From Desulfurococcales archaeon (GTDB lineage Archaea; Thermoproteota; Thermoprotei_A; Sulfolobales; Desulfurococcaceae): a stretch of DNA of 63,357 nucleotides. This document shows, one piece after another, positions 10,803 to 13,474 of the stretch; positions within the stretch are counted from its first letter, which is position 1; the number at the start of each line of letters is the position of its first letter. The stretch spans positions 1 to 63,357 of the forward strand of contig JALWZC010000058.1 in assembly GCA_027002875.1 (NCBI GenBank), given 5' to 3'. A model generated the notes under the pieces. The model was not told the origin of the DNA. It did not search any database and saw only the letters and a program-made list of their open reading frames with translations. The position numbers and the translations under genes are program-made.

Positions 10803-12434
10803 ATGACTAGCATCAGGAGGATCTTATCGGGCATTCTAGCCTACACAGGATTGCTGCTCGTATTTATTAGTATCTATGCAGCACTATACATTACTCCATC
10901 AACACATGCTACTCCTAGCAAAACCTGTATCTCCAGTGTAAGTAGCTTACTAGACTCTCTATCCCCGAAGCAGTTGGAGTATAATATGGTTGGCTCTAGC
11001 ATTACTTCTGTGGGAAATGTAACTGTTATTAATAAGTGGTTTAAGCTAAAGTCTTGCAGGTATAATGGTGCTTATCCGTATATTTACATCGATGAACTAT
11101 ACCCACAGGGCGTAAAGGATAGGAAAACCGTTATCCTGGTTCATGATTATATGAGTACTCATTACTCACTATACAATTTAGCCAACTACCTTGTACAGAG
11201 AAAATTCCATGTATTAATGTTCGACTTGCCCGGTGTCGGGAAGAACAAACCCCCTTATGGGTCTAAGCTAGTCTTCGAATCGATAAAGCCTCGCGATTCA
11301 CTATGGATCCACAGCTTATGTATTATAAGAAGCCTTGTACAATTTGCACGCAGAGTAATTAATGCCTCGGAAATAGATGTTGTTGGAGTAGGTCTTGGAG
11401 GTTCGATCGCATTAATGAGCGGGGGTTTAATAAAAGGTATTAATAAGACTGTGAGCCTTGGCTTAATAGGAGATTACTCTTATAGCATATCTAAGGCTTC
11501 ACTAGTGAATTACTATATACATAGGGTTCCACCGAATACGTGCACCGATCCCTTTAGGTATGTACGCCGGGGACAACATGTTTTAAGGATAGTTATAATC
11601 GGGTCGAATGATGAATATTTGTTTCCAGAGAGTCTTAAAGCACTCGTTAGAGAAGGCGTTACTGTTTACTTAGAGCCTAATAGTGATCATACGAGTTTTA
11701 TGGATAATTGGAAAACGATAATAGATGAATTACTCATCGAAAATAGGACGAAAAACTATGAAAATACTGGTAGTATTTTGAAGCCCCTATTACCTGATTG
11801 GCCTTGGCTTATATCCAGTAGTGTCGAAAGGAATCCGGTTATTCCTTCTATAAATATGATTACTCAGGGTTCCTTTAATTCCGGCCTTTACAGGATTAAG
11901 GATGTAGTATTCACGGGTTCATGGATCCTCTTATTCTCAGCCGGGCTTGTATTAATACTTACCGGTTTCTCTATGGAGTACCGAAGCGTTAAGAGCGCTA
12001 GGTATACTTTCCTTGACTACGTCTATGTCGGCTTACTCCTCCTTGTCTTTTTCAGCCCGCTCCTCCCTTCTATCTGGAGTCCTGAAAGGTTCAATATTAG
12101 TATTATCGAGTATACTGATCGGATGGCCTATCTTCTACCATTAATATCCCAGCTTGTCCTGCTTTACATCTTATTAGAACCCTTACTGTTCTTGAAGATT
12201 CTATATCGTGGTGGGAGAACTTCATTCTACATATACGTATCCTATCCGATCTTCGTAACAACTATGGTTTACAGCTTCGTATTGATAATGGGGTATAAAT
12301 ACGGTAATATTTTCCCGGTATATCCGACTACAGGGTTAATAGTGCCGCTAATAACCATTGTAATCGACTACTTGTTTACTGCAGAGTCCCCTCATGAAGA
12401 AGACTCTTCATCCAATACAGATGTTACTGAGTAA
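10803..12434 (+). CDS. Alpha/beta-hydrolase-fold domain fused to a polytopic membrane domain
   Basis: N-terminal anchor helix; core blocks TVILVHDYMSTHY, FDLPGVGKN and VDVVGVGLGGSIAL; several TM helices in the C-terminal ~170 aa. Confidence 0.5.
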   Translation: MTSIRRILSGILAYTGLLLVFISIYAALYITPSTHATPSKTCISSVSSLLDSLSPKQLEYNMVGSSITSVGNVTVINKWFKLKSCRYNGAYPYIYIDELYPQGVKDRKTVILVHDYMSTHYSLYNLANYLVQRKFHVLMFDLPGVGKNKPPYGSKLVFESIKPRDSLWIHSLCIIRSLVQFARRVINASEIDVVGVGLGGSIALMSGGLIKGINKTVSLGLIGDYSYSISKASLVNYYIHRVPPNTCTDPFRYVRRGQHVLRIVIIGSNDEYLFPESLKALVREGVTVYLEPNSDHTSFMDNWKTIIDELLIENRTKNYENTGSILKPLLPDWPWLISSSVERNPVIPSINMITQGSFNSGLYRIKDVVFTGSWILLFSAGLVLILTGFSMEYRSVKSARYTFLDYVYVGLLLLVFFSPLLPSIWSPERFNISIIEYTDRMAYLLPLISQLVLLYILLEPLLFLKILYRGGRTSFYIYVSYPIFVTTMVYSFVLIMGYKYGNIFPVYPTTGLIVPLITIVIDYLFTAESPHEEDSSSNTDVTE

Positions 12435-12470
12435 TCCGTTTATCCGCTGCTCTTCATCGGGGACCCGTAG

Positions 12471-12548
12471 TGGGATAGCCGGGTACATGCTACAATGGAT
12501 CATCACTATTATTCAGTCCGCCCGTCGTAAACATCCCCGGCTATCCCA
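12471..12548 (-). ncRNA. Atypical box C/D sRNA closed by a 13-bp terminal helix (predicted 16S rRNA guides)
   Basis: Minus strand reads TGGGATAGCCGGG - GATGTTT - ACGACGGGCGGA - CTGA - ATAATA - GTGATGA - TCCATTGTAGCA - TGTA - CCCGGCTATCCCA. The spacing is exactly 7/12/4/6/7/12/4. Internal D'/C' boxes are consensus, terminal box positions are degenerate, and the flanks form a perfect 13-bp stem. The guides complement 16S CCGCCCGUC and GCUACAAUGG (recalled). Confidence 0.7.
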
Positions 12549-12606
12549 TTAAGGATTAATCCCAGCCTAACTATTATATTTTAGCTAGTAATCCCTTTAT
12601 CGAGGG

Positions 12607-13419
12607 GTGGGGTTATTGGATAGATTGATTGTATTATTAACTGATTTTGGCTATAAGGACCCATACGTCGGCGTTGTTAAGGGCGTTATTAAAAGCATAA
12701 ATCCAAATGCTGACATCATCGATTTAACCCACGAAGTCTCGAGGCAGGATGTGTACGAGGCGGCTCTACTGCTTTTTGTCTCATACAAGTATTTCCCCCA
12801 CTGCACTATTTTTGTCTCAGTAGTTGATCCCGGCGTAGGTTCTACTAGGAAAGCCTTATTGGTTAAAACTAGGAACTACTATTTCATTGGACCGGACAAT
12901 GGATCGCTTTATCCTGCATCTGTAGATGACGGTATTATGGAGGTATATGATGTTTCAAATTCACCATTTAAGTTGAAGAACACATCATATACTTTCCACG
13001 GTAGAGATCTATTCGCCCCTATCGCTGCATATCTATCCCTCGGACTAAGTCCTAGCCAACTCGGTTATAGGATCGATGAAGAGGACATGGTTAAACTAGA
13101 ATTCCCCAGGCCTCAACTAACGGATGAAGGCATAAAGGGCTCGATCATATATATCGATGTATTTGGAAATATTATGACAAATATTGATAGAAGCCTATTA
13201 GAGGAAATTAAGGTAAACTACGGTTCTAAACTATCTATTGAACTAGGAGGAAAGACTTTTACCTGTAGACTAGTACCCAGCTTTAGCTATGTTGGCAGGG
13301 GCGAGGTAGCATGTTATATTAATTCATGGGGTTTCTTCGAGATCGGTATAAATCACGGTAATGCAGCTAGGGCTTTAAGCGTTAAAAATGGTGACCCAAT
13401 AGTTTTAGCTAAGAAGTAA
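12607..13419 (+). CDS. SAM hydroxide adenosyltransferase (DUF62, chlorinase/fluorinase family)
   Basis: IVLLTDFGYKDPYVGVVKGVI ... VVDPGVGSTR ... IGPDNGSL matches the DUF62 N-terminal domain signature. Confidence 0.8.
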   Translation: MGLLDRLIVLLTDFGYKDPYVGVVKGVIKSINPNADIIDLTHEVSRQDVYEAALLLFVSYKYFPHCTIFVSVVDPGVGSTRKALLVKTRNYYFIGPDNGSLYPASVDDGIMEVYDVSNSPFKLKNTSYTFHGRDLFAPIAAYLSLGLSPSQLGYRIDEEDMVKLEFPRPQLTDEGIKGSIIYIDVFGNIMTNIDRSLLEEIKVNYGSKLSIELGGKTFTCRLVPSFSYVGRGEVACYINSWGFFEIGINHGNAARALSVKNGDPIVLAKK

Positions 13420-13474
13420 TCAGTACTCAAGACCCTCTTCATCGACTAGTACTCAGTCCTCCCGAGATCATCAC
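13420..13474 (-). ncRNA. Box C/D sRNA candidate
   Basis: Minus strand reads GTGATGA (C) - 11 nt TCTCGGGAGGA - CTGA (D') - 10 nt - ATGAAGA (C') - 12 nt GGGTCTTGAGTA - CTGA (D). A TATA-like TTAAATAAA lies upstream in minus sense. Targets were not identified. Confidence 0.55.

Follow-up and report, generated by a model that had tools for sequence, protein, structure and literature searches.

The window examined here, a stretch of 63,357 nucleotides of DNA from a Desulfurococcales archaeon, contains a 78-nt element on the minus strand (12471..12548), located between two plus-strand genes. These are an open reading frame (ORF) for a protein of 543 aa with an alpha/beta-hydrolase fold (10803-12434) and a gene for a SAM hydroxide adenosyltransferase (12607-13419), which is divergent from the element and separated from it by a gap of 58 nt. 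The gap contains a TATA-like sequence, AAAATATAAT (12574..12583, minus strand), about 29 nt upstream of the start of the element's stem and, judged from its sequence, a candidate for its own promoter. A perfect 10-bp palindrome, GGATTAATCC (12553-12562), is found in the same gap. Downstream, at a distance of 4 nt, an 83-nt C/D sRNA with a standard terminal K-turn is encoded on the same strand (12384..12466). This companion sRNA has an 8-bp stem, GAU and GA…GA, and is antisense to the last 51 nt of the hydrolase ORF. Another, ordinary C/D sRNA candidate (13420-13474, minus strand) begins directly past the stop codon of the adenosyltransferase gene, which lies on the opposite strand, and has the layout GUGAUGA-11 nt-CUGA-8 nt-CGAUGA-15 nt-CUGA. 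The presence of this ordinary sRNA in the window implies that the methylation machinery is normal.

Read from 12548 to 12471, the 78-nt element consists of TGGGATAGCCGGG, GATGTTT, ACGACGGGCGGA, CTGA, ATAATA, GTGATGA, TCCATTGTAGCA, TGTA and CCCGGCTATCCCA, which corresponds to the RNA UGGGAUAGCCGGG-GAUGUUU-ACGACGGGCGGA-CUGA-AUAAUA-GUGAUGA-UCCAUUGUAGCA-UGUA-CCCGGCUAUCCCA. Together with 23 homologues, this sequence defines a succession of C-stem, degenerate K-turn, D' guide, D'/C' K-loop, D guide, degenerate D box and C-stem. The first-pass annotation had described a 7-12-4-6-7-12-4 spacing between two perfectly complementary 13-nt arms, and precisely this arrangement is seen on the minus strand. 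The arms form the terminal C-stem, with the 5' arm UGGGAUAGCCGGG at 12536..12548, whose inner CCGGG is the portion conserved in the family, and the 3' arm CCCGGCUAUCCCA at 12471..12483; both are delimited by pairing and covariation. The internal boxes had likewise been described correctly as a consensus pair, as box D' (CUGA, 12513..12516) and box C' (GUGAUGA, 12500..12506) enclose the 6-nt loop AUAAUA (12507-12512) in a consensus K-loop. For the terminal boxes, the sequence was as described, but the register of box C was off by one. GAUGUUU matches RUGAUGA at only 2/7 positions, whereas AUGUUUA (12534-12528), read one nucleotide later, matches at 5/7 and leaves a D' spacer of 11 nt. The degenerate box C thus spans 12526..12534 and overlaps the GAU bulge of the terminal motif, with G1b at 12532 and a U instead of an A at 2b. 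The degenerate box D (UGUA, 12484..12487) matches CUGA at 1/4 positions, and its final A alone (1n, at 12484) is conserved. The RNA folds at -37 kcal/mol with z = -5.3 relative to 200 dinucleotide shuffles. Rfam yielded no family for the 78-nt RNA in the window at the gathering threshold, in the locus at E ≤ 10, or in six orthologous loci at E ≤ 1.

Homologues were searched for in one genome per species, 596 Gb in all, using a pattern of the two guide cores and the D'/C' boxes with 28 specified bases and free termini. The pattern returned 23 loci besides the window copy, compared with about 0.001 chance matches expected by our own arithmetic; it demanded both guides and the D'/C' boxes, and members with other guides are missed. 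All 23 loci belong to Desulfurococcaceae, Thermogladius, Staphylothermus, Ignisphaera, Pyrodictiaceae or related MAGs, i.e., Desulfurococcales-type archaea. The resulting 24 sequences are phylogenetically related, and counts among them overstate the number of independent events. Since the termini were unconstrained in the search, the terminal features of the members are unbiased. The D'/C' loop varies from 2 to 8 nt across the family, the boxes themselves being required by the pattern. The 78-nt element is a real, conserved archaeal box C/D guide RNA. It shares with archaeal box C/D sRNAs such as Sulfolobus sR1 the bipartite layout, the consensus D'/C' K-loop, spacers of 11-12 nt, 10-bp rRNA antisense elements, the N+5 geometry, a size of about 60-80 nt, and a gene organisation in tandem or linked to tRNA or rRNA genes.

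A G/C-rich terminal helix of 4-13 bp was found in 24/24 members by a stem search anchored at the junction. A search for the longest stem without anchoring picked spurious distal stems and was replaced by the anchored one. In the ungapped, junction-anchored alignment, the four innermost pairs form in every member, with exchanges between GC and CG in 7-8 sequences, while pairs 5-7 form in 17-21 of the 24 with up to five pair types. The stem reaches a covariation score of 0.486, compared with 0.183 for shuffled alignments, none of which reached 0.486 in 500 trials, and with 0.10-0.28 for slid controls. The comparison of orthologous loci for compensatory changes, as proposed in the first-pass annotation, therefore shows a stem that covaries. 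Its outer sequences are lineage-specific yet complementary (UGGGAUAG…, AUGGUUG…, GGGGG… and UGGCUGGAG…). The conserved portion of the helix amounts to 4-6 bp. Helices of 12-13 bp occur only in the window copy, in L018 (13 bp; 82% identical to the window over 1.6 kb), and in L012 and L021 (12 bp each), and the length of 13 bp is, on this comparison, a local extension.

The same comparison bears on the possibility that the element has no function and is a MITE-like element derived from an sRNA, a decayed pseudogene, a fragment of 16S, a terminator hairpin or a small ORF. A 13-nt inverted repeat flanks it, as in the MITE-like sRNA elements of P. calidifontis (PMC6009581), and it is overlapped by a plus-strand ORF of 52 aa (12394-12552) that is antisense to both sRNAs. 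This ORF is broken by a stop codon and a frameshift in the closest relative, L018, and is probably not a gene. The MITE-like reading, for which Lui et al. (2018) provide the model, was rejected as the arms have no further copies beyond chance in the 63-kb window, dispersed or otherwise, and as its synteny with both the adenosyltransferase gene and the companion sRNA has been conserved. A 16S fragment was discarded as well, because the stretches identical to 16S are just 9-11 nt long and box sequences lie between them. The pseudogene, terminator and small-ORF readings do not agree with the synteny, the compensatory substitutions in the stems and the broken ORF of L018. Decay of this copy alone had been raised earlier as the alternative to be checked at orthologous loci, and it is contradicted by the terminal defect being shared by 20/24 members. 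An element without function is thus highly improbable.

A/T-rich boxes are found upstream of the guide RNA in most orthologues. The companion sRNA lies 1-116 nt downstream in at least 17/24 loci, and the two RNAs probably form one transcription unit. The D' guide core of the companion, CAGCGGAUAA, has been conserved across at least 17 loci; a search of E. coli rRNA, the 16S of L002 (5' 735 nt) and the 23S of L008 (3' 2455 nt) failed to locate its predicted target UUAUCCGCUG. For the ordinary sRNA (13474→13420), the D' guide matches E. coli 23S near position 1995 at 10/11 nucleotides, and no convincing target was obtained for its guides in E. coli rRNA, L002 16S or L008 23S. The divergent arrangement of a gene for a SAM-cleaving enzyme and a guide for SAM-dependent methylation is kept in about ten loci. 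In L002, L006, L007, L008 and L023, the orthologue of the guide RNA adjoins rRNA genes. L002 (1-2073) carries on a single strand the sRNA, three tRNAs, a sub-threshold Pab19-like H/ACA RNA and 16S, in this order, and in L007 (708-1929) the 16S gene starts about 540 nt from the sRNA on the other strand. In L006 (2619-3087), L008 (5122-8000) and L023 (1-1085), the sRNA is located about 350-360 nt downstream of the 3' end of 23S on the same strand; these three are the members with a standard K-turn and without the companion. Rfam scans of all 23 loci detected 5' parts of 16S in L002 and L007 and 3' parts of 23S in L006, L008 and L023, and no 3' region of 16S. A tRNA gene often follows the pair of sRNA and companion on the same strand or directly flanks the sRNA. 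It is found 100-250 nt beyond the sRNA in L011, L012, L013, L015 and L016, and an association with tRNA is also seen in L004 (6114-6320), L005 and L010. This neighbourhood suggests co-transcription in small-RNA clusters.

Both guides match universally conserved segments of 16S, e.g. the 1392/1406 universal primer site. The pairing was computed against E. coli rrsH, with the match to the host's own 16S resting on this conservation. The D' guide CGACGGGCGGA (12517..12527, 11 nt) is antisense to 1399-1408 and pairs with E. coli positions 1399-1407 over 9 contiguous nt, placing C1402, a cytidine of the decoding centre, at N+5. The D guide UCCAUUGUAGCA (12488..12499) pairs with 1232-1242 over 11 contiguous nt, with A1236 at N+5. 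For random 12-mers from the window, the probability of at least 9 contiguous pairs is 0.022 and that of at least 11 is 0.0006, and both together were reached in 0/5000 trials, which supports the earlier statement that both guides match conserved 16S segments. The predicted target sequence at the C1402 site is CCGCCCGUC(G). The nucleotide 5' of GACGGGCGG is a C in 23/24 members, and this C would lengthen the duplex to 1408 if position 1408 were a G. With 9/10 G/C, the D' duplex qualifies as a "strong" substrate. A scan of crenarchaeal 16S from metagenomes (92 loci) was abandoned as an independent test of the targets, as none of the sequences was hyperthermophilic (maximum GC 0.616) and the pattern forced the target sequences. 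The two guides are also partly complementary to each other (ACGACGG / CCAUUGU; 12488-12527), and the MFE fold pairs them. Both sides of this pairing are invariant, hence it has no covariation support, and it may represent an auto-inhibited form of the RNA or simply follow from the target sequences.

The two guides differ in how strictly their register is kept. C1402 (E. coli numbering) is at N+5 of the D' guide in 24/24 members, so that the target assigned to this guide in the first-pass annotation, the C1402 equivalent, is sustained throughout the family. The second guide has no conserved methylation target. Its spacer measures 12 nt in 14 members, 13 nt in 9 and 15 nt in 1, and N+5 consequently shifts between A1236, U1235 and further. 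An equation of human Um1442 with E. coli U1235 was dropped, since it conflicts with the numbering offsets in PMC11542601. The guide with the fixed register is the one coupled to the intact C'/D' motif, and the drifting spacer is the one coupled to the degenerate end. Selection on a precise methylation geometry appears to act on the D' guide only, and for the second antisense element an affinity or chaperone contact is more likely.

The conservation of both antisense elements despite this drift could also mean that the RNA is an rRNA chaperone that does not methylate. It would clamp pre-16S at 1232-1242 and 1399-1408 during folding, with methylation being incidental or absent. Chaperone roles have been proposed for dual guides (PMC4644070; PMC5539422), and the gene adjoins rRNA operons in L002, L006, L007, L008 and L023. 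However, the strictly invariant D' register hits the one small-subunit ribose that is methylated in all three domains, and the C'/D' boxes conform to the consensus. Chaperoning would, moreover, not preclude methylation. A role confined to chaperoning is therefore regarded as improbable, and a guide for methylation of C1402 is preferred.

Several known guides share this predicted target, namely snR70 / U43 (SNORD43, AtU43) and the Cm1369 guide of P. abyssi. The latter and snR70 / U43 are described with ordinary C/D boxes. They show no detectable homology to the present family beyond the antisense element imposed by the target. The C1402-equivalent Cm has been mapped as Cm1402 in E. coli, Cm1369 in P. 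abyssi, Cm1639 in yeast (snR70), Cm1703 in human and Cm1645 in Arabidopsis (AtU43) (PMC11542601; PMC2794176). Predictions for helix 44 are sparse in the seven archaea treated by Dennis et al. (2015), and C1402 is not among the predictions mentioned in the accessible part of that paper.

The structure of the terminal end is best approached from the companion sRNA. Its end, with G/C stem, GAU or AAU, GA… …GA and a second stem, has the form of a textbook K-turn, GAU being the bulge L1-L3. A GAU bulge is also present in the K-turn of the 5'-UTR of S. acidocaldarius l7ae (PMC5539422). When the register of the companion is applied to the guide RNA, the end reads stem, GAU (12533..12535), G(1b)… …A(1n), stem. 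In this bulged register, L1-L3 is GAU in 23/24 members and AAU in the remaining one, and 1b·1n is G·A in all 24 (in L007 via an alternative CCCC/GGGG stem register). Position 2b is U in 12 members, G in 7, A in 4 and C in 1, and position 2n is A in 12, G in 7 and U in 4. Positions 3b·3n pair in 21/24 with five pair types (shuffle p < 0.0005). The positions flanking GAU and G·A vary freely among members. A fully standard K-turn (GAU, G·A, A·G, A-U) is found in L006, L008 and L023, and in L011 positions 2b·2n are A·A, as in Kt-23 of T. solenopsae (PMC5061560). The standard A2b·G2n pair is thus limited to 3/24 members, with A·A in one more and no A2b in the other 20. In the window copy and L018, U·U is found at 2b·2n, which confirms the earlier view that the terminal boxes of the former lack the capacity for tandem sheared G·A pairs.

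A first reading had the stem abut GAUG without a bulge; it was revised after the companion had shown GAU to be a K-turn loop, and is kept as a formal alternative. In this no-bulge register, GAUG occupies 1b-4b and A2b is kept, with one covarying pair that forms in 18/24 members with six types. The end would then be an unkinked, continuous helix containing an internal G·A / A·R / U·U loop. Only one of the two registers can apply, and the counts by themselves do not settle which. Three arguments favour the bulged register, namely the existence of standard members, the layout of the companion RNA and the better symmetry of the spacers (11 + 12-13 nt compared with 14 + 12-13 nt). Its D' spacer of 11 nt also equals that of the ordinary sRNA 13474→13420. 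Consequently, the earlier proposal that the 13-bp helix replaces the terminal K-turn is not borne out in that form: the helix is the K-turn's own C stem, and the GAU bulge and G1b·A1n are kept. The near-invariance of both in otherwise variable surroundings points to selection for a residual K-turn rather than for a plain duplex.

The loss at 2b is unusual among K-turns. A2b is conserved in essentially all K-turns, where the 2b adenine is the second "essentially universal" A-minor hydrogen-bond acceptor (PMC5061560), and it is this acceptor that is removed in 20/24 members. The closest likeness is found in the Kt-23 K-turns (T. thermophilus with 2n = U; T. solenopsae with 2n = A and bound by L7Ae), which share the 3-nt bulge, G1b·A1n and a deviation at 2b·2n. 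Kt-23 nevertheless keeps A at 2b and varies only at 2n, whereas 2b is U, G or C in 20/24 members of the guide family. The loss of A2b therefore appears to exceed the described natural variation of K-turns, and binding of L7Ae to a motif with U at 2b would be without precedent, which counts against the favoured reading. Compared with archaeal box C/D sRNAs, 20/24 members lack the terminal A2b·G2n sheared pair and box D is reduced to its last A. Degenerate sRNA ends as such are not new, as Lui et al. (2018) reported unusual boxes or non-canonical K-motifs in 3-11% of the known sRNAs of Pyrobaculum and Pyrococcus (PMC6009581).

An engineered RNA offers a further comparison. Wang, Yang & Ye (2022, RNA 28:1597) obtained BMG1 from Sulfolobus sR1c by removing the terminal C/D motif, so that a stem of 4 bp remained (PMC9670817). 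In vitro with Nop5 and fibrillarin of S. solfataricus, both spacers of BMG1 are active; the spacer coupled to the stem is independent of L7Ae, and the D' spacer is dependent on it. A terminal stem of 4-8 bp can stand in for C/D in this system, and strongly paired substrates tolerate weakened assembly. The authors left the natural existence of such RNAs in archaea open and suggested that some natural RNAs might carry a stem for one motif (PMC9670817). The claim of the first-pass annotation that the element does not belong to a described class is accordingly valid in part: degenerate K-motifs (PMC6009581) and the engineered BMG1 (PMC9670817) were known, but no natural conserved family of this kind was found described. 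With BMG1 the family shares an intact internal C'/D' and a terminal duplex instead of a tandem-G·A C/D motif. This duplex is at least 4 bp long and adjoins the spacers (13 bp here). The K-turn determinants, in contrast, are not absent, as the natural family keeps the GAU bulge and G1b·A1n across an archaeal order, and the synthetic BMG1 has no K-turn remnants.

The element could accordingly be a natural guide of the BMG1 type, in which L7Ae is not bound by the terminal motif at all, docking of Nop5-fibrillarin falls to the helix alone, and the asymmetric sRNP has a single L7Ae, on C'/D'. Such a guide is consistent with the missing A2b·G2n pair of the window copy and with the no-bulge register, which gives a continuous helix here (13 bp, followed by G·A, A-U, U·G, G·U and U-A). 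The activity of BMG1 with archaeal Nop5 and fibrillarin, the L7Ae-independence of its stem-coupled spacer and the authors' suggestion that natural RNAs of this kind may exist (PMC9670817) also agree with it. A plain docking duplex, however, needs neither GAU nor G1b·A1n, both of which are essentially invariant in 24 genomes with varying flanks. Furthermore, three members are standard K-turns in the bulged register, and the companion has the same stem-GAU-G layout as a true K-turn. A helix acting entirely alone is hence considered unlikely, and a degenerate but residual K-turn remains the preferred reading of the terminal end.

The length of the terminal helix differs between the guide RNA and its neighbour. 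In 16/16 genomes in which both RNAs could be measured, which are related and do not represent 16 independent events, the terminal helix of the guide RNA (4-13 bp in the family) is longer than that of the standard companion. The lengths in bp of guide and companion are 13 v 8, 13 v 10, 12 v 7, 9 v 5, 9 v 4, 8 v 7, 8 v 4, 7 v 5, 7 v 4, 7 v 3, 7 v 2, 6 v 4 (three times), 6 v 3 and 6 v 2. Every companion copy among those listed retains a standard K-turn. As the companion copies and the ordinary sRNA are standard in these genomes, the degeneracy is specific to the C1402 guide RNA. A longer helix that compensates for a weakened K-turn fits these observations.

Taken as a whole, the element is probably a conserved C/D guide RNA for methylation of C1402 with a non-standard terminal K-turn clamped by a helix, for which expression, L7Ae binding and methylation are predicted. 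The consensus D'/C' K-loop would recruit L7Ae, Nop5 and fibrillarin. Pairing of the G/C-rich D' guide CGACGGGCGG with 16S 1399-1408 would bring the ribose of the C1402 equivalent to N+5 for 2'-O-methylation. The terminal motif would act as a derivative of the K-turn that combines a G/C-rich C-stem, 13 bp long here, with the GAU bulge and G1b·A1n as its one sheared pair, A2b·G2n being lost. The extra-long helix would keep the ends together and provide a docking duplex for the second copy of Nop5, thereby compensating for the weak K-turn. The main contribution of the second guide would be additional affinity for the same pre-rRNA domain or a contact with it as a folding chaperone, and any methylation directed by it would fall at a non-conserved position.

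Two K-turn motifs, to which proteins of the L7Ae family bind, are the defining feature of C/D guide RNPs. The guide family is the best natural candidate found for the question raised by BMG1. A conserved natural counterpart of BMG1, with L7Ae on the internal C'/D' only and the long helix together with the single G·A docking Nop5 without L7Ae, is put forward tentatively and is on balance somewhat doubtful. If true, it would answer the question of Wang, Yang & Ye (2022) of whether nature uses a stem in place of C/D, and the universally conserved Cm1402 could be installed by an asymmetric, "half K-turn" RNP. Within at least 24 genomes, the family forms a natural series from the standard K-turn (L006, L008, L023) via A·A (L011) to ends with G·A only (window copy). 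These are ready constructs for asking how much K-turn an archaeal sRNP needs and whether the length of the helix compensates, and the adjoining sRNA with its standard K-turn serves as an internal control for the degenerate-ended members. In the Desulfurococcales-type archaea, the family would represent the predicted crenarchaeal guide for the only small-subunit ribose methylation common to all three domains.
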